This document shows, piece by piece, positions 3,832 through 41,612 of a stretch of DNA of 64,000 nucleotides (its first letter is position 1; each line of letters starts with the position of its first letter). The stretch is from Shigella phage CT01: sequence record OK018184; one strand, 5' to 3'. Under the pieces are notes generated by a model. The model was not told the DNA's origin, made no database searches, and saw nothing but the letters and a program-made list of their open reading frames with translations. The position numbers and the translations under genes are program-made.

Positions 3832-4017
3832 GGAAGAACGGGGATGTAAACCGTTTTGTGAAAAAATTTTTAAAAAGTTTTAGGGAATTCTAGGGCAGGG
3901 ATGGGCAATTAAAAGGTAGGATAATATATTATAAAGGGTATAAACTAAATGATGCCTAGAGAGGTCTGGAAAGGCCTAGATACCAAAAAGCCCTATCATT
4001 TAGATAGGGATTTAAAA

Positions 4018-4506
4018 TTATTTACCTAGTTTAGTTATTATAGCTTCGGCAGCAGCTTTTAGCTTAGATGCAGTGTTAATACGATTTTTAATTTCAGTAT
4101 AAGCATCGCCAAGAACATCAAGGCTATCAGAATAAACACTTACACTATTGCGTTCGCTATTTGAAATAGAACCTTTAGTTTTACGATCAAAATCGGTATA
4201 CACGTCTTGAAGATCACGGGCTGCCTTCTTTGCATCATCCAATGCATCAAGAGCTTTATTCAAAGCATTGACATATTTTTTAGTGTCAAACATATTCTTA
4301 GAAATTTTGAAAAATGCTTTATTGAAATTATTTTCTTGACTCATCGTAAAAGAACTATTATCGATGTTATACATTTCAATAGCTTTAGCTTTCCACTTAA
4401 GAAAATCGCCCCGGTCTTTTGGGTCCAAGTGGAAGAATACTTTAGTAAGATCTGCTTCAGATGGTAATTTTGCTGCTTCGGTTAAAAATTCGGCATAAGT
4501 TTTCAT
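4018..4506 (-). CDS. internal-protein-like protein with capsid targeting sequence
   Basis: 162 aa; N-terminus MKTYAEFLTE matches the T4 internal-protein CTS and ends in an L-x-E site of the kind cut by the gp21 prohead protease. Confidence 0.55.
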   Translation of the reverse strand: MKTYAEFLTEAAKLPSEADLTKVFFHLDPKDRGDFLKWKAKAIEMYNIDNSSFTMSQENNFNKAFFKISKNMFDTKKYVNALNKALDALDDAKKAARDLQDVYTDFDRKTKGSISNSERNSVSVYSDSLDVLGDAYTEIKNRINTASKLKAAAEAIITKLGK

Positions 4507-4591
4507 TTAAAATCCTTGAAATAATTTATTGGTTATTAATTATTTATCACGTTGTTATCATCCATGTTAGCATTCTCTGAGTGATTCAAAC

Positions 4592-4620
4592 TAAAAAGCC
4601 CCAACCTTTCGGTCGGGGCT
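4592..4620 (-). terminator. GC-rich hairpin plus T-run on minus strand
   Basis: agcccc…ggggct stem followed by a T-run on the minus strand. Confidence 0.4.
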
Positions 4621-4764: not shown

Positions 4765-4926
4765 CAAAAACGCTACTCGGCTTACGGCAAAGATATTTCC
4801 TCGAATCGATAATTCGGTGCGCCGTTTCTGCTGTGATAGTAAAGAATCAGAACACAGTAAAACTGTGGGAGAAACTATACTCCAGGGAACATCAGTCCGA
4901 CGACTTACCGGTAGCGACCCGGTTTC

Positions 4927-5277
4927 TTAGTATTCTTTTAAAGCATCAACCTGTCCACGACGTTTACGCCATAAATCAATTACTTCATACGCAGATTCAG
5001 CATTTCGAATTGGACGGCATTTATATAAAGACTTGTGATTTTGATATTGTGTAGATAATGGAATTTTATCTAAAAGGTCTTTACGTTCAAAGTATTCGTA
5101 ACCATCTAAACCAAATGAACGATTTTTGAGAAATTGCCAATGACCGTATTCGTTTTCGACATAAACATAATCTGCATGCTGATAAAGTAAATTAATTACA
5201 CGTTCAGAAATAACAGTGTCATTGTGATTAAAATAGAATGTTAAATCATGAACTACTAAATAAACATTACCTTTCAT
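4927..5277 (-). CDS. hypothetical protein within the tRNA region
   Basis: 116 aa ORF between the small-RNA region and tRNA-Arg; no endonuclease motif seen. Confidence 0.4.
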   Translation of the reverse strand: MKGNVYLVVHDLTFYFNHNDTVISERVINLLYQHADYVYVENEYGHWQFLKNRSFGLDGYEYFERKDLLDKIPLSTQYQNHKSLYKCRPIRNAESAYEVIDLWRKRRGQVDALKEY

Positions 5278-5293: not shown

Positions 5294-5369
5294 TGGTCGA
5301 GGCAGTAGGGATCGAACCTACGACCTAGGACTTAGAAGGTCCTTGCTCTTCCTTCTGAGCTATGCCTCG
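5294..5369 (-). tRNA. tRNA-Arg (anticodon UCU)
   Basis: manual cloverleaf: acceptor 5298-5304/5363-5369, T arm gtagg-gatcgaa-cctac, anticodon loop CUUCUAA, CCA encoded. Confidence 0.7.
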
Positions 5370-5373
5370 GATT

Positions 5374-5448
5374 TGGCGGACGTGATAGGATTCGAACCTA
5401 TAACCAATCGCTTAACAGGCGATCGCTCTGCCATTGAGCTACACATCC
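5374..5448 (-). tRNA. tRNA-Asn (anticodon GUU)
   Basis: manual cloverleaf: acceptor ggacgtg/cacatcc, T arm atagg-attcgaa-cctat, anticodon loop CUGUUAA, D stem gctc/gagc, CCA encoded. Confidence 0.7.
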
Positions 5449-5452
5449 AAAT

Positions 5453-5539
5453 TGGTGGGGAGTGGTGGAGTCGAACCACCCGAGTCGCAATGACAATGGA
5501 TTTACAGTCCACACCGCTACCTCTACGGGATAACTCCCC
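5453..5539 (-). tRNA. tRNA-Tyr (anticodon GUA), type II
   Basis: acceptor ggggagt/actcccc, T arm ggtgg-agtcgaa-ccacc, long variable arm, anticodon loop CUGUAAA. Confidence 0.6.
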
Positions 5540-5548
5540 AAATTAATT

Positions 5549-5623
5549 TGGTGGCCCTGGGTGGAATTGAACCACCATCTGGCGATTATGAGTCGCTTGC
5601 TTGAACCTTCCAGCTACAGGGCC
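5549..5623 (-). tRNA. tRNA with CAU anticodon (Ile2 or Met), copy 1
   Basis: acceptor ggccctg/cagggcc, T arm ggtgg-aattgaa-ccacc, anticodon loop CUCAUAA; position matches T4 tRNA-Ile. Confidence 0.6.
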
Positions 5624-5624
5624 T

Positions 5625-5700
5625 TGGTGCTGATTGACGGAATCGAACCGCCGACCTTCTCATTACAAGTGAGTTGCTCTACCTACTGAGCTAAATCAGC
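5625..5700 (-). tRNA. tRNA-Thr (UGU), copy 1
   Basis: acceptor gctgatt/aatcagc, anticodon loop CUUGUAA. Confidence 0.7.
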
Positions 5701-5705
5701 AAAAC

Positions 5706-5795
5706 TGGCGGAGGCGATAGGATTTGAACCTATGAGTCGCCGGAGCGACTGCCGGTTTTCAAGACCGGTGCATTAAACCACTCTGCCACGCCTCC
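5706..5795 (-). tRNA. tRNA-Ser (UGA), type II, copy 1
   Basis: acceptor ggaggcg/cgcctcc, long variable arm, anticodon loop CUUGAAA. Confidence 0.7.
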
Positions 5796-5797
5796 AG

Positions 5798-5871
5798 TCT
5801 CCATACAAGGATTTGAACCTTGGACCTCCTGATCCCAAATCAGGCGCTCTACCAAACTGAGCTACACGGAG
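5798..5871 (-). tRNA. tRNA-Pro (UGG), copy 1
   Basis: acceptor ctccata/cacggag (two G-U pairs), anticodon loop UUUGGGA; CCA not encoded. Confidence 0.6.
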
Positions 5872-5881
5872 TAAATTAAAT

Positions 5882-5955
<74 letters not shown>

Positions 5956-5960
5956 AAATT

Positions 5961-6047
5961 TGGTGCGAGAAGTGGGACTCGAACCCACAAGGAAATCATT
6001 CCGCAGCATTTTAAGTGCTGTGCCTTTACCAATTTGACCATTCTCGC
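5961..6047 (-). tRNA. tRNA-Leu (UAA), type II, copy 1
   Basis: acceptor gcgagaa/ttctcgc, T arm gtggg-actcgaa-cccac, long variable arm, anticodon loop CUUAAAA. Confidence 0.7.
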
Positions 6048-6048
6048 G

Positions 6049-6115
6049 CTGGGAATAAAGGACTCGAACCTTTGCATCCTGGAATCAAAATCCAGTGCCT
6101 TACCAATAACTCCCC
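6049..6115 (-). pseudogene. chimeric pseudo-tRNA at duplication junction (tRNA-Gln 3' body fused to tRNA-Tyr 5' end)
   Basis: Gln T arm and anticodon arm intact to 6106, then the sequence switches to the tRNA-Tyr 5' terminus; D-stem 5' strand lost and acceptor strands no longer pair. Confidence 0.6.
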
Positions 6116-6124
6116 AAATTAATT

Positions 6125-6199
6125 TGGTGGCCCTGGGTGGAATTGAACCACCATCTGGCGATTATGAGTCGCTTGCTTGAACCTTCCAGCTACAGGGCC
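6125..6199 (-). tRNA. tRNA with CAU anticodon (Ile2 or Met), copy 2
   Basis: identical to copy 1, offset +576. Confidence 0.6.
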
Positions 6200-6200
6200 T

Positions 6201-6276
6201 TGGTGCTGATTGACGGAATCGAACCGCCGACCTTCTCATTACAAGTGAGTTGCTCTACCTACTGAGCTAAATCAGC
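6201..6276 (-). tRNA. tRNA-Thr (UGU), copy 2
   Basis: identical to copy 1, offset +576. Confidence 0.7.
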
Positions 6277-6281
6277 AAAAC

Positions 6282-6371
6282 TGGCGGAGGCGATAGGATT
6301 TGAACCTATGAGTCGCCGGAGCGACTGCCGGTTTTCAAGACCGGTGCATTAAACCACTCTGCCACGCCTCC
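6282..6371 (-). tRNA. tRNA-Ser (UGA), copy 2
   Basis: identical to copy 1, offset +576. Confidence 0.7.
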
Positions 6372-6373
6372 AG

Positions 6374-6447
6374 TCTCCATACAAGGATTTGAACCTTGGA
6401 CCTCCTGATCCCAAATCAGGCGCTCTACCAAACTGAGCTACACGGAG
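6374..6447 (-). tRNA. tRNA-Pro (UGG), copy 2
   Basis: identical to copy 1, offset +576. Confidence 0.6.
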
Positions 6448-6457
6448 TAAATTAAAT

Positions 6458-6531
<74 letters not shown>

Positions 6532-6536
6532 AAATT

Positions 6537-6623
6537 TGGTGCGAGAAGTGGGACTCGAACCCACAAGGAAATCATTCCGCAGCATTTTAAGTGCTGTGCC
6601 TTTACCAATTTGACCATTCTCGC
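6537..6623 (-). tRNA. tRNA-Leu (UAA), copy 2
   Basis: identical to copy 1, offset +576. Confidence 0.7.
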
Positions 6624-6624
6624 G

Positions 6625-6697
6625 CTGGGAATAAAGGACTCGAACCTTTGCATCCTGGAATCAAAATCCAGTGCCTTACCAACTTGGCTAATTCCCA
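6625..6697 (-). tRNA. tRNA-Gln (UUG), the only intact copy
   Basis: acceptor tgggaat/attccca, T arm aaagg-actcgaa-ccttt, anticodon loop UUUUGAU. Confidence 0.7.
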
Positions 6698-6794
6698 ATT
6701 ATTAACAAAGGCTCTCAAACAAGAACCCTTGATGATAGAGGGTATTAATCAGTGCGATATGAGTTAATAATAACAAATAATTCTTAAAGCATAT

Positions 6795-7082
6795 TTACCA
6801 TTTATGATAATACATATTTACGATGCATTCAAGACCCAAAGGATTCTTGAAAATATCATATTCAAGAGGACCTTTTTCCGTTTCAATAAAGAAATCAAAA
6901 TTTACTGTATTAAATTTACGGTCTTCCTTCACTAATTTAACTTGAGAAGATGAACGATCAATGTAAACCTTTTCAACTTCAAAACATGTTAAAATGCCAT
7001 AATCATCAATCAAGGCTTTAGCTGCTTCTTGATCATATTTATATCCATTTTCAATGGATGATACTTTCGCATAAAGAATCAT
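6795..7082 (-). CDS. hypothetical protein
   Basis: 95 aa ORF on the operon strand between the tRNA cluster and ipI. Confidence 0.45.
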   Translation of the reverse strand: MILYAKVSSIENGYKYDQEAAKALIDDYGILTCFEVEKVYIDRSSSQVKLVKEDRKFNTVNFDFFIETEKGPLEYDIFKNPLGLECIVNMYYHKW

Positions 7083-7084
7083 TA

Positions 7085-7489
7085 TTAACCTTTATCAACA
7101 ATAGTATGTGTATGGGCATTTACGATTTGCCACCAGTCAAAACTATCGCCAAATCGTTTTGATTTATTGTCTTCAATAATTTGGCGTAATTCATCTTCTG
7201 TTTCAGCATACGCAATCAAATCATCATATCCACCGCAAGGATAGTAATTATCGCCTGCGAACAAAAGAAAATTTACTTTAGATGGGTCTACATAATAATG
7301 CTCTTTAGGATATTTAGTTCCTTTCCAATCAGTTACTTCAACATAACGATAAGAAAATCCATTTTTACTTTCAACCCAACTCCACGCTTCAAAAGGAGTA
7401 TTAAAAACTCTATCAGGTATTAAATTACCTTCAAAATGAGAAGGATTTGCATAATCCCCAGCATAAACATAATATTCGTTAATATTCAT
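7085..7489 (-). CDS. hypothetical protein
   Basis: 134 aa ORF, aromatic-rich; stop adjoins the next start. Confidence 0.5.
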   Translation of the reverse strand: MNINEYYVYAGDYANPSHFEGNLIPDRVFNTPFEAWSWVESKNGFSYRYVEVTDWKGTKYPKEHYYVDPSKVNFLLFAGDNYYPCGGYDDLIAYAETEDELRQIIEDNKSKRFGDSFDWWQIVNAHTHTIVDKG

Positions 7490-7675
7490 TTATTCACCTT
7501 TAGAAATTTTATCCATAACAATAGCGATTAAACCAATTAAAAATGCTACTACAAGTGAAAAAACATTTTCTGCTGTAGTCAATAATCCACATATAAATCC
7601 AACAAACATTGAAAAACTAAAAGCAGAAGCAGAAATTGCAATAGCAACATTTCGAATTAATTCACAACGTTTCAT
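7490..7675 (-). CDS. small membrane protein
   Basis: 61 aa, single long hydrophobic segment; early-type promoter and GAGGAG RBS upstream. Confidence 0.4.
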   Translation of the reverse strand: MKRCELIRNVAIAISASAFSFSMFVGFICGLLTTAENVFSLVVAFLIGLIAIVMDKISKGE

Positions 7676-7704
7676 TTTATTCTCCTCAGTAGTTGATAGG
7701 GTAA

Positions 7705-7734
7705 TAGTATCACAACTAAAACCCTATGTAAACA
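7705..7734 (-). promoter_or_regulatory. early-type sigma70 promoter (minus strand)
   Basis: minus strand reads GTTTACA, 17-nt spacer, TACTAT; embedded in a 20-bp motif repeated at 8094-8113. Confidence 0.4.
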
Positions 7735-7751
7735 ACTTTGTGAAATATTTA

Positions 7752-8039
7752 TTACAAAAGATTTTTAGCAATAATCTTGAGATGTGCCGCAGAAATGTGT
7801 TTAGCTTTAAACAACGCAGTTTCTTCAGCAGGAGAGATAATGATTGTAGCACCATCCTTTTTAGCAGACCACCCATCACCTAGGTAAACAGTACCTTTGA
7901 TTTCTTCGCCATCAACCAAACTAATCATTGGTTTACCTTCTCGTCCTTTATTTGCTTTAATAACTTCAGAAGTAAGAGTAGCTTCAGTAATAGTAGAAAC
8001 CGGGGTAGTTGTAGAAGTAAATTCTTTGAAAGTTTTCAT
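7752..8039 (-). CDS. ipI: internal protein I precursor
   Basis: 95 aa; N-terminal 19-aa CTS MKTFKEFTSTTTPVSTITE ending in an I-x-E protease site; size and position match T4 IPI. Confidence 0.7.
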   Translation of the reverse strand: MKTFKEFTSTTTPVSTITEATLTSEVIKANKGREGKPMISLVDGEEIKGTVYLGDGWSAKKDGATIIISPAEETALFKAKHISAAHLKIIAKNLL

Positions 8040-34884: not shown

Positions 34885-36509
<1,625 letters not shown>

Positions 36510-36510
<1 letters not shown>

Positions 36511-36758
36511 TGGAAGGTTTAATTGAAGCTATTAAATCAAACGACCTCGTAGCCGCTCGTAAATTATTTGCTGAAGCCATGGCTGCAAGAACGATTGATT
36601 TAATTAAAGAAGAAAAAATCGCTATCGCTCGTAATTTCTTAATTGAAGGTGAAGAACCTGAAGACGAGGATGAAGATGATGACGAAGATAGCGATGATAA
36701 AGACGACAAAAAAGACAAAGACTCTGATGAAGATGACGAAGACGAGGATGATGAATAA
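36510..36758 (+). CDS. 67: prohead core protein gp67
   Basis: 82 aa with a strongly acidic D/E-rich C-terminal tract. Confidence 0.7.
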
Positions 36759-37183
36759 TGCTTCTGATCCCTGAAACTCATGAATTAGTTCTCGAGAATG
36801 TCGAAGCACTTATTCCTGAAGCACAGGGTCGCTTTGACGAATTGTCTTCTGCTTTAAATAAAGACGATATAAATACAATTGTCGAGAATATGCTTGATGA
36901 TGAAACTGATTTAGCAGTTGCATTAGCTTCTATTAATGAAAATATGCCGTTAAATGAATTCATCGTTAAACATGTTTCTGCCCGTGGTGAAATTACTCGC
37001 ACTAAAGATCGCAAAACCCGCGAACGAAATGCATTTCAAACCACCGGGCTGTCTAAAGCAAAACGTAGACAAATTGCTCGTAAAGCTACCAAAACGAAGA
37101 TTGCCAATCCAGCAGGTCAATCTCGTGCTCAGCGTAAGCGTAAAAAAGCTCTTAAACGCCGTAAAGCATTAGGATTAAGCTAA
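36758..37183 (+). CDS. 68: prohead core protein gp68
   Basis: 141 aa, basic C-terminus; between 67 and 21 as in T4. Confidence 0.7.
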
Positions 37184-37821
37184 TGAATGAACCCCAATTA
37201 CTAATTGAAACTTGGGGTCAACCTGGCGAAATTATTGATGGCGTGCCAATGCTTGAATCTCACGATGGAAAAGACTTAGGTTTAAAACCGGGTTTATACA
37301 TTGAAGGAATATTCATGCAAGCGGAAGTCGTCAATAGAAATAAACGTCTTTATCCAAAACGCATATTAGAAAAAGCGGTAAAAGACTATATTAATGAGCA
37401 AGTTTTAACTAAACAAGCTCTCGGAGAATTAAATCATCCTCCACGCGCTAATGTTGACCCGATGCAAGCCGCTATCATTATAGAAGATATGTGGTGGAAA
37501 GGAAATGACGTATACGGACGAGCTCGTGTTATTGAAGGTGACCATGGTCCTGGAGATAAATTAGCAGCTAATATTCGTGCCGGATGGATTCCAGGAGTTT
37601 CTTCTCGTGGATTAGGTTCATTGACTGACACAAATAAAGGTTATCGTATCGTAAACGAAGGATTCAAATTAACTGTAGGTGTTGATGCAGTATGGGGTCC
37701 AAGTGCTCCAGATGCATGGGTAACTCCTAAGGAAATTACCGAATCACAGACGGCGGAAGCCGATACAAGTGCCGATGACGCCTATATGGCTCTCGCAGAG
37801 GCCATGAAAAAAGCGTTATAA
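37183..37821 (+). CDS. 21: prohead core protease gp21
   Basis: 212 aa, T4 gp21 size and position. Confidence 0.85.
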   Translation: MNEPQLLIETWGQPGEIIDGVPMLESHDGKDLGLKPGLYIEGIFMQAEVVNRNKRLYPKRILEKAVKDYINEQVLTKQALGELNHPPRANVDPMQAAIIIEDMWWKGNDVYGRARVIEGDHGPGDKLAANIRAGWIPGVSSRGLGSLTDTNKGYRIVNEGFKLTVGVDAVWGPSAPDAWVTPKEITESQTAEADTSADDAYMALAEAMKKAL

Positions 37822-37824
37822 ATA
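37817..37824 (+). promoter_or_regulatory. late promoter TATAAATA for gene 22
   Basis: exact TATAAATA overlapping the gp21 stop, about 28 bp upstream of gp22. Confidence 0.55.
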
Positions 37825-37851
37825 TTATTATCTAAACAACAGGACTACAAA

Positions 37852-38661
37852 ATGCTTAAAGAACAACTGATTGCTGAAGCGCAAAAAATTGATGCTTCCG
37901 TTGCTCTTGATAGTATTTTCGAATCAGTTAATATTTCTCCGGAAGCAAAAGAAACTTTCGGCACTGTATTCGAAGCTACCGTCAAGCAGCACGCCGTTAA
38001 ATTAGCTGAATCTCATATCGCTAAAATTGCTGAAAAAGCAGAAGAAGAAGTAGAAAAAAATAAAGAAGAAGCAGAAGAAAAAGCTGAGAAGAAAATCGCT
38101 GAGCAAGCTTCTAAATTCATTGACCATCTTGCGAAAGAATGGCTCGCTGAAAATAAATTAGCAGTTGATAAAGGCATCAAAGCCGAACTGTTTGAATCCA
38201 TGCTTGGTGGATTAAAAGAGCTCTTTGTTGAACACAACGTTGTTGTTCCAGAAGAATCAGTTGATGTTGTGGCTGAAATGGAAGAAGAGCTGCAAGAACA
38301 TAAAGAAGAATCAGCTCGTCTGTTCGAAGAACTCAATATGCGCGACGCATATATTAATTATGTGCAGCGTGAAGTGGCATTGAGCGAAAGTACTAAAGAT
38401 CTGACTGAGTCTCAAAAAGAAAAAGTCTCTGCTCTGGTCGAAGGTATGGATTATTCAGATGAATTCTCAAATAAATTGAGTGCCATCGTAGAAATGGTGA
38501 AGAAGTCTAATAAAGATGAAAGCACTATTACTGAGGGTATAAATACTCCTGATACTGAAGCAGCCGGACTGAATTTCGTCACTGAAGCTGTAGAAGATAA
38601 AGCTGCACCTGGTGCAGAAGATATTGTAAGTGTATATGCGAAAGTCGCATCTCGTTTCTAA
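37852..38661 (+). CDS. 22: prohead scaffold protein gp22
   Basis: 269 aa, highly charged helical protein. Confidence 0.8.
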   Translation: MLKEQLIAEAQKIDASVALDSIFESVNISPEAKETFGTVFEATVKQHAVKLAESHIAKIAEKAEEEVEKNKEEAEEKAEKKIAEQASKFIDHLAKEWLAENKLAVDKGIKAELFESMLGGLKELFVEHNVVVPEESVDVVAEMEEELQEHKEESARLFEELNMRDAYINYVQREVALSESTKDLTESQKEKVSALVEGMDYSDEFSNKLSAIVEMVKKSNKDESTITEGINTPDTEAAGLNFVTEAVEDKAAPGAEDIVSVYAKVASRF

Positions 38662-38679
38662 TTTTAAAGGTTAACACAA

Positions 38680-40245
38680 ATGACTATCAAAACTAAAGCT
38701 GAACTTTTGAACAAATGGAAGCCATTACTGGAAGGTGAAGGTTTACCGGAAATTGCTAATAGCAAACAAGCGATTATCGCTAAAATCTTTGAAAACCAGG
38801 AAAAAGATTTCCAGACAGCTCCAGAGTACAAAGACGAAAAAATTGCTCAGGCATTCGGTTCTTTCTTAACAGAAGCTGAAATCGGTGGTGACCACGGTTA
38901 CAACGCTACTAACATCGCTGCTGGTCAGACTTCTGGCGCAGTAACTCAGATTGGCCCAGCTGTTATGGGTATGGTACGTCGTGCTATTCCTAACCTGATT
39001 GCTTTCGATATTTGCGGTGTTCAGCCGATGAACAGCCCAACTGGTCAGGTATTCGCACTGCGTGCTGTATATGGTAAAGACCCAATCGCTTCAGGTGCTA
39101 AAGAAGCATTCCACCCAATGTATGGTCCAGATGCAATGTTCTCTGGTCAGGGTGCTGCTAAGAAATTCGCTGCTTTGAAAGCAAGTGATACTCTTGAAGT
39201 TGGAACTATTTACACCCACTTCTTCCAGGACACTGGTACTGTGTATCTGCAAGCTACAGAAGCTAAACAAATTGATTCCACTGCATCTGACGTAGCTAAA
39301 TTAGATGCTGAAATTAAGAAACAAATGGAAGCTGGTGTACTGGTAGAAATCGCTGAAGGTATGGCTACTTCTATCGCTGAACTTCAGGAAGGTTTCAACG
39401 GTTCTACCGATAACCCATGGAATGAAATGGGCTTCCGTATCGATAAACAAGTTATCGAAGCTAAATCTCGTCAGCTGAAAGCTGCTTACTCTATCGAATT
39501 AGCACAAGACCTCCGCGCTGTTCACGGTATGGATGCTGATGCTGAACTGTCTGGTATTCTGGCTACCGAAATCATGCTGGAAATCAACCGTGAAGTTGTT
39601 GATTGGATTAACTACTCAGCTCAGGTTGGTAAATCTGGTATGACCCTGACTCCAGGTTCTAAAGCTGGTGTATTTGACTTCCAGGATCCGATTGATATTC
39701 GTGGTGCTCGCTGGGCGGGTGAATCCTTTAAAGCTCTGTTGTTCCAGATTGACAAAGAAGCAGTTGAAATTGCTCGTCAGACCGGTCGTGGTGAAGGTAA
39801 CTTCATTATCGCTTCCCGTAACGTAGTTAACGTTCTGGCTTCAGTTGATACTGGCATTTCTTATGCTGCACAGGGTCTGGCTACCGGCTTTAACACTGAT
39901 ACTACCAAGTCAGTATTTGCTGGTGTTCTGGGTGGTAAATACCGTGTATATATCGACCAGTATGCTAAACAGGATTATTTCACTGTAGGTTATAAAGGTC
40001 CGAACGAAATGGATGCTGGTATTTACTATGCTCCATATGTAGCTCTGACTCCGCTGCGTGGTTCCGATCCGAAGAACTTCCAACCAGTAATGGGATTCAA
40101 AACTCGTTACGGTATCGGTATCAACCCATTTGCAGAATCCGCTGCTCAGGCTCCGGCTTCTCGCATCCAGAGCGGTATGCCTTCTATTCTGAATAGCCTT
40201 GGTAAAAACGCTTACTTCCGCCGTGTATATGTTAAAGGTATCTAA
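38680..40245 (+). CDS. 23: major capsid protein gp23
   Basis: 521 aa; MTIKTKAELLNKWKPLLEGEGLPEIANSKQAIIAKIFENQ… closely matches remembered T4 gp23. Confidence 0.95.
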   Translation: MTIKTKAELLNKWKPLLEGEGLPEIANSKQAIIAKIFENQEKDFQTAPEYKDEKIAQAFGSFLTEAEIGGDHGYNATNIAAGQTSGAVTQIGPAVMGMVRRAIPNLIAFDICGVQPMNSPTGQVFALRAVYGKDPIASGAKEAFHPMYGPDAMFSGQGAAKKFAALKASDTLEVGTIYTHFFQDTGTVYLQATEAKQIDSTASDVAKLDAEIKKQMEAGVLVEIAEGMATSIAELQEGFNGSTDNPWNEMGFRIDKQVIEAKSRQLKAAYSIELAQDLRAVHGMDADAELSGILATEIMLEINREVVDWINYSAQVGKSGMTLTPGSKAGVFDFQDPIDIRGARWAGESFKALLFQIDKEAVEIARQTGRGEGNFIIASRNVVNVLASVDTGISYAAQGLATGFNTDTTKSVFAGVLGGKYRVYIDQYAKQDYFTVGYKGPNEMDAGIYYAPYVALTPLRGSDPKNFQPVMGFKTRYGIGINPFAESAAQAPASRIQSGMPSILNSLGKNAYFRRVYVKGI

Positions 40246-40260
40246 TCTTTGACGATTTAA

Positions 40261-40290
40261 GGGACCTTCGGGTCCCTTTAGTTGTTTTTA
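40261..40290 (+). terminator. intrinsic terminator between genes 23 and 24
   Basis: gggaccttcgggtccc hairpin followed by a T-rich tract. Confidence 0.55.
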
Positions 40291-40293
40291 TGG

Positions 40294-40301
40294 TATAAAT
40301 A
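40294..40301 (+). promoter_or_regulatory. late promoter TATAAATA for gene 24
   Basis: exact TATAAATA about 28 bp upstream of the gp24 ATG. Confidence 0.55.
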
Positions 40302-40328
40302 AATCATATAAACCAAAAGGAAAGCGCA

Positions 40329-41612
40329 ATGGCTAAAATCAACGAACTTCTGCGCGAATCAACCACAACGAATAGCAACTCAATCGGTCGCCCAAATCTC
40401 GTTGCTTTGACTCGCGCTACCACTAAATTAATATATTCTGACATTGTAGCAACGCAAAGAACTAATCAACCTGTTGCTGCTTTTTATGGTATCAAATACC
40501 TTAATCCAGATAACGAATTTACTTTTAAAACTGGTGCTACTTACGCTGGCGAAGCTGGATATGTAGACCGAGAACAAATCACAGAATTAACAGAAGAGTC
40601 TAAATTAACTCTCAATAAAGGCGATTTATTCAAATATAATAATATCGTTTATAAAGTATTAGAAGATACACCATTTGCTACCATTGAAGAAAGCGATTTA
40701 GAATTAGCTCTTCAGATTGCAATTGTTCTTTTAAAGGTTCGTCTATTTTCTGATGCAGCATCAACAAGCAAATTTGAAAGTTCTGATAGCGAAATTGCGG
40801 ATGCTAGATTCCAGATTAATAAATGGCAAACCGCAGTTAAATCTCGTAAACTTAAAACTGGCATCACAGTTGAATTAGCACAAGATTTAGAAGCAAATGG
40901 ATTCGATGCTCCTAATTTCTTGGAAGATTTGCTTGCAACTGAAATGGCGGATGAAATCAATAAAGATATTCTGCAGTCTTTGATTACAGTATCAAAACGA
41001 TATAAAGTTACAGGAATTACTGATACTGGATTCATTGATTTGAGTTATGCATCTGCACCTGAAGCTGGCCGTTCATTATACCGAATGGTATGTGAAATGG
41101 TTTCGCATATCCAAAAAGAATCAACTTATACTGCAACGTTCTGTGTTGCTTCAGCTCGTGCCGCTGCGATTCTTGCTGCATCAGGTTGGTTAAAACATAA
41201 ACCAGAAGATGATAAATATCTTTCACAAAATGCCTATGGGTTCTTAGCTAATGGTTTACCGCTTTATTGCGATACTAACAGCCCATTAGATTATGTAATC
41301 GTTGGTGTAGTAGAAAATATCGGTGAAAAAGAAATTGTTGGATCAATTTTCTATGCTCCGTATACAGAAGGTCTTGACTTAGATGACCCTGAACATGTAG
41401 GTGCATTTAAAGTTGTAGTTGATCCAGAAAGTTTGCAGCCATCTATCGGTTTATTAGTTAGATATGCTTTATCAGCAAATCCTTACACTGTAGCAAAAGA
41501 TGAAAAAGAAGCAAGAATAATTGATGGTGGAGACATGGATAAAATGGCGGGTCGTTCAGATTTGTCTGTTTTATTAGGTGTTAAGCTACCAAAAATTATC
41601 GTTGATGAATAA
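40329..41612 (+). CDS. 24: capsid vertex protein gp24
   Basis: 427 aa, gp23 paralogue by size and position. Confidence 0.85.
   Translation: MAKINELLRESTTTNSNSIGRPNLVALTRATTKLIYSDIVATQRTNQPVAAFYGIKYLNPDNEFTFKTGATYAGEAGYVDREQITELTEESKLTLNKGDLFKYNNIVYKVLEDTPFATIEESDLELALQIAIVLLKVRLFSDAASTSKFESSDSEIADARFQINKWQTAVKSRKLKTGITVELAQDLEANGFDAPNFLEDLLATEMADEINKDILQSLITVSKRYKVTGITDTGFIDLSYASAPEAGRSLYRMVCEMVSHIQKESTYTATFCVASARAAAILAASGWLKHKPEDDKYLSQNAYGFLANGLPLYCDTNSPLDYVIVGVVENIGEKEIVGSIFYAPYTEGLDLDDPEHVGAFKVVVDPESLQPSIGLLVRYALSANPYTVAKDEKEARIIDGGDMDKMAGRSDLSVLLGVKLPKIIVDE

Follow-up and report, generated by a model that had tools for sequence, protein, structure and literature searches.

A protein of Shigella phage CT01 with a T4-type capsid targeting sequence belongs to an unnamed family of probable internal head proteins

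Introduction

In phage T4, proteins bearing a capsid targeting sequence (CTS) are incorporated into the gp22 core assembly, and the first ten residues of one of them, the internal protein IPIII, suffice for head incorporation (PMC9026906). Residues 4 and 7 of the CTS (Y/F and F in IPIII) carry most of the targeting information while residues 8 and 10 are for processing, with gp21 cleaving after the Glu of an L/I-X-E site (PMC9026906). The ipI product is a known injected inhibitor of GmrSD (PMC12373910). Work from 2025 established that each of the three T4 internal proteins specifically inhibits a different GmrSD enzyme: Ip1, Ip2, and Ip3 act on distinct type IV enzymes of the GmrSD family (PMC12373910). 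Each further CTS-bearing protein is therefore a candidate injected counter-defense factor. Here we analyze such a protein, the 162-amino acid (aa) product of an open reading frame (ORF) at positions 4018-4506, minus strand, in a 64,000-nucleotide stretch of Shigella phage CT01 (OK018184), referred to below as the window. The product belongs to phrog_2280 and we consider it likely to be a packaged internal head protein of the T4 type from an unnamed family.

The closest described proteins are IPII, IPIII, Ip4, and Ip7 of RB14/P922-type phages. Like the candidate, they have a near-identical 10-residue N-terminus in which L/I-X-E is followed by Ala, a small, basic, Lys-rich mature part, and an accessory, non-essential gene in the e-tRNA-ipI region of a phage that encodes the gp21/gp22 machinery; for the candidate, a distant family member has been detected in virions. 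Beyond the CTS they are unlike it, falling in PHROGs 5341, 7857, 3155, and 2667 as opposed to 2280. The candidate has also never been annotated as an internal protein (Ip), has only a late-type box and no GTTTAC-type early cassette, and, unlike the ip genes, occupies a position that is conserved across eight genera and not hypervariable. With the GmrSD inhibitors IPI* (PF11634), Ip2, and Ip3 (PMC12373910), likewise products of accessory genes, it shares a predicted route from CTS to gp21 to co-injection with DNA containing glucosylated hydroxymethylcytosine. IPI* is described as having two beta sheets with terminal helices on their flanks (PMC3012670), unlike the candidate, which is predicted to be all-helical with a long C-terminal hairpin.

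Several hundred phages of therapeutic type that have been sequenced carry the family; their hosts are E. coli, Shigella, Yersinia, Klebsiella, and Enterobacter. The family has so far been a "hypothetical protein" and a PHROG without function, and an assignment would improve the annotation of hundreds of phage genomes. Taken together, the CTS, the putative late promoter, and a virion detection by mass spectrometry (MS) that had been overlooked turn phrog_2280 into a directly testable hypothesis. The family adds an unnamed member to the known class of CTS-bearing internal proteins and does not involve a new principle.

Results

A first-pass annotation of the window had proposed an ORF with an internal protein-like start, and its coordinates, length, and N-terminus were all correct, with the ORF found at exactly 4018-4506. 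The coding sequence starts with ATG, the range includes the stop codon, and the precursor has a mass of 18.3 kDa. Its N-terminus is MKTYAEFLTEAAKL, that is MKTYAEFLTE with AAKL next. Codons 1-10 (4477-4506, minus strand) encode the predicted CTS, or propeptide, given its similarity to Ip CTSs. All four functionally mapped CTS positions are matched (Y4, F7, L8, and E10). Identity over the ten residues is 8/10 with Ip4 (MKTYQEFITE) and 7/10 with both Ip7 (MKTYQEFINE) and T4 IPII/IPIII (MKTYQEFIAE). Residues L8-T9-E10 followed by Ala11 form a gp21-type L/I-X-E site with Glu, not Asp, at position 10, and the earlier claim of a T4-type CTS with a gp21-type cleavage site is borne out. No other [LIV]xE site occurs in the protein. 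We dropped the absence of internal L/I-X-E sites as an argument for the candidate because about one site is expected by chance. Cleavage by gp21 is predicted to fall after Glu10, leaving a 152-aa mature protein (residues 11-162) of 17.1 kDa with 21 Lys and an isoelectric point (pI) of 9.1. Mature pI values are 9.1-9.8 in the phrog_2280 family and 9.0-9.7 in known Ips.

The signal is rare in the window. Among 573 ATG-started ORFs of at least 40 aa, nested starts counted, only the candidate and the ipI ortholog (7752-8039, minus strand; PF11634, E 2e-53) begin with MK[TS][YF]xEF. Over about 130 kb of related loci, a looser CTS pattern matched only annotated internal proteins, members of the candidate's family, and one unannotated ORF in the ipII position of P922. 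In phage P922, BD_149 adjoins denV (locus L001, 806-1087) and is a 93-aa "hypothetical protein" starting MKTYSEFLSESILNEATD; this ORF, which bears a CTS, lies in the ipII position, and has no annotated function, most likely encodes another internal protein. The machinery for CTS processing and core assembly is encoded at 34924-41612 and comprises gp20, gp67, gp68, gp21, gp22, gp23, and gp24, with Pfam matches to Peptidase_S77, T4_CASP, GP67, portal, and gp23/gp24. The prohead serine protease gp21 (Peptidase_S77) lies at 37183-37821 on the plus strand (Pfam E 1.5e-111) and the scaffolding core protein gp22 at 37852-38661, also on the plus strand (Pfam E 1e-89). gp68 (36758-37183) has no Pfam match and was assigned by its position between gp67 and gp21.

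A homolog of the candidate has been found in virions. Michniewski et al. (2019) analyzed CsCl-purified virions of the Mosigvirus vB_Eco_mar005P1 by nano-liquid chromatography electrospray ionization tandem MS (nanoLC-ESI-MS/MS) and detected five proteins only: the tail sheath, the prohead core protein gp68, the major capsid protein, the packaged ADP-ribosyltransferase (Alt), and the hypothetical protein MAR005P1_00015 (PMC6563131). The authors termed MAR005P1_00015 a structural protein and made no link to internal proteins or a CTS (PMC6563131); its GenBank note reads "confirmed structural protein by MS". We found MAR005P1_00015 (6284-6910) to be a member of phrog_2280 (E 3.3e-57) and syntenic with the candidate. 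Its place among so few detected proteins suggests that it is abundant in virions. Absence from virions had been put forward beforehand as the outcome that would speak against the candidate, and at the family level the opposite was found. Like the candidate, MAR005P1_00015 has the phrog_2280 assignment, the map position, the late box, and the architecture of CTS-like N-terminus, N-domain, linker, and helical C-terminus. It differs in its length of 208 aa, its long linker rich in Pro, Ala, and Lys (PAK), and its propeptide with a double L/I-X-E site (MYTFNEFLAE/TEVITE/AG). The part of the Jiaodavirus virion MS supplement accessible to us listed no peptides of the family, which is uninformative as the one copy examined from that group, in ValerieMcCarty01 (not an MS phage), is truncated.

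To place the candidate in a family, we compared it with PHROG profiles and sequence collections. It matches phrog_2280 ("unknown function") over the full length of the profile (E 1.5e-44, residues 1-156 on profile positions 1-178 of 178). It corresponds to RB14ncORF136c and Shfl2p135 and is the counterpart of the frameshifted pair RB69ORF148c/149c; the gene is annotated as hypothetical in all records. The gene is found in 164 phage records out of 771 with the surrounding DNA in common, and the proteins of these Tequatrovirus/Mosigvirus-type records are 98-100% identical, indels aside. When 1.84 billion representative proteins were searched exhaustively with HMMER, only five matched, including P0015, a distant full-length homolog (E 2.4e-5). 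P0015 served as a bridge sequence to the wider phrog_2280 family, and with it 351 phage records match. Diverged homologs come from at least seven genera (Mosigvirus, Dhakavirus with JS98 orf135, Karamvirus, Kanagawavirus, Kagamiyamavirus, Jiaodavirus, and Marfavirus), and phrog_2280 represents eight Tevenvirinae-type genera in total with synteny kept. All the diverged homologs tested match the phrog_2280 profile. The Tequatrovirus type aligns with the Mosig/Dhaka type in hhalign over 166 columns (95.2% probability, E 2.7e-8). No mention of RB14ncORF136c or RB69ORF148c/149c was found in the literature searched, and the candidate sequence is absent from the supplements of the Silas 2025 screen.

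Members of phrog_2280 share one layout. A CTS-like propeptide precedes a conserved helical N-domain, and a Pro/Ala/Lys-rich linker that varies in length connects this domain to a helical C-terminal part, which comes in at least two unrelated versions, with the Jiaodavirus type deviating. Jiaodavirus-type members keep the CTS and N-domain and have an unrelated C-terminal module, IPGLKVRGKYGSIIGSGE...LVELSRQTGLSYNV (alignment columns ~110-227). In P0011, a 116-aa metagenomic variant (L016 1800-2150, L017 481-831), the helical C-terminal part of the candidate (from ALDDAKKAARDLQ...) stands behind a CTS-less N-terminus, MNIEDKEMKKLYDSL..., an arrangement that points to domain shuffling in the family. 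Another metagenomic protein, the 118-aa chimera P0012, joins candidate residues 72-97 (...DDAKKAAR) in frame to the C-terminal part of NudE (RECLEETG...), with a junction that corresponds to window positions ~290 and ~4220. Because P0012 fuses the candidate to NudE, it implies natural relatives with a deletion of about 3.9 kb, e.2-e.8, via recombination at AAR/AARRE microhomology. On the metagenomic contig that carries P0015 (L004) the next 3′ gene (2092-2526) encodes ADP-ribosyltransferase-type domains (ART-PolyVal / DUF3990), where coliphages have e.8.

The N-terminal signal is retained where the rest of the protein has diverged. Overall identity of the diverged homologs is 18-27%, and 3-8 of the first ten residues are kept (4-8 in the eight homologs that keep the register). 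The near-invariant columns of the diverged family, few in number, include F7, E10, and A11. CTS-like N-termini include MKTYNEFLNE in JS98, MYTFNEFLAE in mar005P1, MITFNEFLNE in P0015, MLNFKEFIAE in KMB19, and MLKFKEFISE in EcS1. Several homologs have a second I/L-X-E a few residues on (for example ...FIAE/SDSDMITE/AG), and these double-site N-termini resemble the 19-residue propeptide of IPI.

The upstream region is consistent with late expression. A T4 late-promoter-like box, GATAAATA (4541-4548, minus strand), lies 34 nt 5′ of the ATG, with the Shine-Dalgarno sequence AAGGA at 4513-4517 on the same strand. A (T/G/C)ATAAATA box is present 30-45 nt 5′ of the ATG in 10/10 homolog upstream regions, nine of them distinct, directly following a terminator hairpin and amid otherwise unalignable DNA. 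Elsewhere in the window, perfect TATAAATA boxes are found 14-29 nt before gp53, gp18, gp19, gp20, gp22, gp24, and other late genes. Upstream of the candidate an intrinsic terminator hairpin with a T-run (4592-4620, minus strand) closes the tRNA / rnaD / rnaC unit, and between it and the ATG we found no sigma-70-type promoter on the candidate strand. A MotA-type middle promoter and a sigma-70 early promoter 5′ of the candidate were both rejected for want of a convincing match. The classical ip genes compared (ipI, ipII, ipIII, Ip4, Ip5, and Ip7) have GTTTAC-type early promoter / stem-loop cassettes upstream; the comparison covered window positions 7675-7760 and the ipI upstream region together with the ip genes of loci L002 and L003. 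Each cassette, nearly identical in all those compared, has GTTTAC, an inverted repeat, a -10-like box, and then AATTAGGAAAATAAA or TTTAAAGGAAACAT. Promoter / stem-loop modules like these have been proposed as mediators of shuffling, and the candidate is without one. Since the late-type box is conserved, no sigma-70 promoter was found, and the ip-type early cassette is lacking, we infer from sequence that the candidate is a late, monocistronic gene. It has its own intrinsic terminator, CCCTATCTAAATGATAGGG followed by CTTTTT (3986-4009, minus strand).

The window is a Tequatrovirus (T4-like) segment that runs from nudE through 57B, 1, 3, 2, 4, and 53 on to the head genes, and the closest records are P922 (97%) and RB14. 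The candidate and the ipI ortholog lie on opposite sides of the tRNA cluster (5294-6697). The first-pass annotation was right that an ipI ortholog is present across the cluster and wrong in assigning the candidate to the position of the T4 tRNA.x ORFs, as the orthologs of T4 tRNA.2-tRNA.4 sit at 6795-7675, between ipI and the tRNA cluster. Like the candidate, tRNA.2, tRNA.3, and tRNA.4 are small accessory ORFs adjoining the cluster, but they are on its other side, lack a CTS, and are unrelated in sequence. The candidate is 3′ of rnaC (4809-4671) and the terminator of the rnaC unit and 5′ of e.8 (3777-3514). T4 does not have the gene and has only intergenic DNA at the corresponding place. Alignment of T4, RB14, and the window delimits a discrete cassette of about 610 bp that holds the ORF together with its late-promoter-like box and its own terminator. 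Relative to T4, both cassette boundaries are terminator T-runs ending in identical GGGCTTTTT.

In other phages the location is much the same. The homolog is 3′ of tRNA genes at every locus retrieved, and at the loci with T4 gene names (JS98, RB69, and mar005P1/mar008P4) it is just before e.8/e.6. The candidate had been taken for the novel, one-off product of a hypervariable locus, a view at odds with a syntenic family in eight genera and 98-100% identity across the 164 records. The gene is nonetheless accessory and dispensable, as it is absent from T4 and from about four fifths of the records that share the neighborhood. It has also been inactivated repeatedly. In RB69 a frameshift divides the gene into ORF149c/148c (L012 2001-2563), the copy in the Jiaodavirus ValerieMcCarty01 is truncated to 58 aa (L013 5001-5177), and G29 and OE5505 have split copies; in several Tequatrovirus records, two ORFs are annotated where the match lies.

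The window carries a shortened allele. Its product is 100% identical to the RB14 protein except for a clean in-frame deletion of 25 aa (75 nt) in the linker, KISKKLASGAQVPKSALATPERAPV. In RB14-type alleles the 75 nt that code for this linker lie between two copies of the 16-nt direct repeat TCAAAATTTCTAAGAA, of which the window has one; this sole remaining copy (4295-4310, minus strand) is the deletion junction. Every one of the 164 phage records matches the candidate in two pieces and hence has the long form. An assembly collection of 153 billion gene positions has no entry for the exact 162-aa product, and the deletion is apparently unique to the window allele. The allele is probably functional, because linker length is free to vary among the homologs, from about 25 to about 60 residues.

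Searches of Pfam, NCBIfam, PDB sequences, and PDB folds with the candidate gave only sub-threshold or chance matches. A match to cytochrome b562 was rejected at 18.8 bits against a cut-off of 30, as was a chance match to the proline-rich linker of TonB. As there is no meaningful match in Pfam, NCBIfam, or the PDB, the fold yields no clue to a target. Both AlphaFold models are all-helical, with two long antiparallel helices predicted in the C-terminal region (residues ~75-110 and ~116-161). A Foldseek comparison with viral models retrieved nothing beyond the candidate's family and a protein of Yersinia phage fHe-Yen9-01.

Discussion

The N-terminal signal, its conservation, and the virion MS result suggest how the candidate may act. 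It would be transcribed from its own late promoter, GATAAATA, and the 162-aa precursor would be recruited to the gp22 scaffolding core of the prohead via the 10-residue N-terminal CTS. gp21 would then cut after Glu10 (LTE/A), and the 152-aa mature protein, basic, Lys-rich, and predicted to be all-helical, would remain in the head with the DNA and exit with it at infection. For the candidate protein itself, we infer packaging, cleavage, and ejection. After injection, its most likely action, by analogy, would be to inhibit a host defense directed at the modified DNA of incoming T-even phages. With Ip1, Ip2, and Ip3 as the model, the first candidate target would be a type IV restriction enzyme of the GmrSD family, and because these three are GmrSD inhibitors anti-restriction is the strongest prior. 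The exchangeable C-terminal module and the repeated loss or breakage of the gene fit anti-restriction with target-driven change. We regard an injected anti-defense effector as a plausible but tentative assignment, somewhat short of even chances. A variant that we judge unlikely is that phrog_2280 is an ancient, modular injected effector of the Tevenvirinae that has a target other than the GmrSD enzymes of Ip1-3 or a dual role, for example coating of the leading DNA end. Such an effector would combine a CTS and N-domain for delivery or anchoring, a flexible PAK linker, and one of at least two exchangeable types of C-terminal module. If true, it would be the first internal protein family to be conserved among genera that differ in their cytosine modifications.

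Several observations weigh against the proposed pathway, against an injected inhibitor, or against carrying the virion result over to the candidate. We found no similarity of the candidate in sequence or fold to IPI* (PF11634), IPII, IPIII, any known inhibitor, or any solved structure in Pfam, PHROG, or the PDB. The two AlphaFold runs (10 and 18 sequences) were of low confidence, with predicted local distance difference test (pLDDT) values of 65.5 and 59.7, and such models give an inhibitor role no structural support. The family member detected in virions is the distant homolog MAR005P1_00015 and not a Tequatrovirus-type allele. It is about 22% identical to the candidate over the hhalign profile alignment, pairwise BLASTP between the two was not significant, and the link between them is made through profiles, the intermediate P0015, synteny, and architecture. 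The window box GATAAATA has one mismatch to the consensus TATAAATA, at the first base. The window allele, without the 25-aa linker, could be impaired. The ipI locus is hypervariable, in contrast to phrog_2280, which is syntenic across genera and near-invariant in Tequatrovirus, and these features suit a housekeeping role in the head at least as well.

Under one rival explanation the candidate is still an internal head protein, but its role is structural or in DNA handling and it lacks a specific host target; it might serve as a counter-ion or spacer for packaged DNA, assist core assembly in the way proposed for IPIII, or aid ejection. We think this rival somewhat unlikely. The mature candidate is basic and Lys-rich (21 K, pI 9.1), most homologs have a long Pro/Ala/Lys-rich low-complexity linker like histone-tail-like DNA-binding segments, the map position is kept in eight genera with near-invariance in Tequatrovirus, unlike arms-race loci, and IPIII mutants show head-assembly aberrations (PMC9026906), all of which would suit such a role. 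Difficult to reconcile with it is a gene that T4 and most phages sharing the neighborhood do without, that is frameshifted or truncated in RB69, G29, OE5505, and ValerieMcCarty01, and that in the window has lost the whole linker with its frame intact. The swap to a Jiaodavirus-type C-terminal module suggests target-driven diversification, and Ip2 and Ip3 were also long deemed "structural" before they proved to be specific inhibitors (PMC12373910). A decaying window allele, inactivated by the 75-nt deletion so that the gene does nothing in this phage, we consider improbable. The long form in all 164 phage records, the lack of the exact 162-aa product in the assembly collection, and the recurrent inactivation of the family elsewhere are what decay would predict; the deletion is in frame, however, and confined to a length-variable low-complexity linker, and it leaves 100% identity to RB14 in the CTS, the N-domain, and the C-terminal helices.

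Two other explanations would take the candidate out of the mature head, and both appear very improbable to us given the virion MS and the conservation of the signal. It may be an accessory of the prohead core or scaffold like gp67 and gp68, degraded and expelled at maturation and not injected. CTS-type targeting and L/I-X-E sites are common to core proteins and some diverged homologs have several internal [LIV]xE sites, but the Tequatrovirus-type protein has the single one at residues 8-10, and the Mosigvirus homolog was found in mature CsCl-purified virions. Alternatively, it may be a late cytoplasmic protein that is not packaged and owes its CTS resemblance to descent or to ip-gene recombination. 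By our own reasoning, recombination among ip genes could spread segments that code for a CTS, and in the metagenomic P0011 the C-terminal half of the candidate occurs behind a CTS-less N-terminus. Against this, the CTS-like N-terminus is kept in homologs that are otherwise about 20% identical, the motif is otherwise confined to Ips, and a homolog is present in virions.

Other features of the locus

The tRNA cluster next to the candidate contains a perfect 576-bp tandem duplication at window positions 5530-6682 (5530-6106 and 6106-6682; 577 nt identical). It doubles the tRNAs for Met/Ile(CAU), Thr, Ser, Pro, Gly, and Leu, for which RB14 and T4 have a single set. The duplication could be real or an assembly artefact. 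At its junction (6049-6116) there is a weak tRNA-like match (Rfam 32.6 bits; no call by ARAGORN), probably a chimera of the 5′ end of tRNA-Tyr and the body of tRNA-Gln. Between tRNA-Arg and the small stable RNAs the window has an extra 116-aa ORF (4927-5277; phrog_3355, unknown function), and T4 has nothing there. T4 rnaD matches the window over its first ~50 nt only (4927-4878), while rnaC (4809-4671) is 99% identical, and for this reason the rnaD region of the window (4810-5277) seems to have been remodeled.

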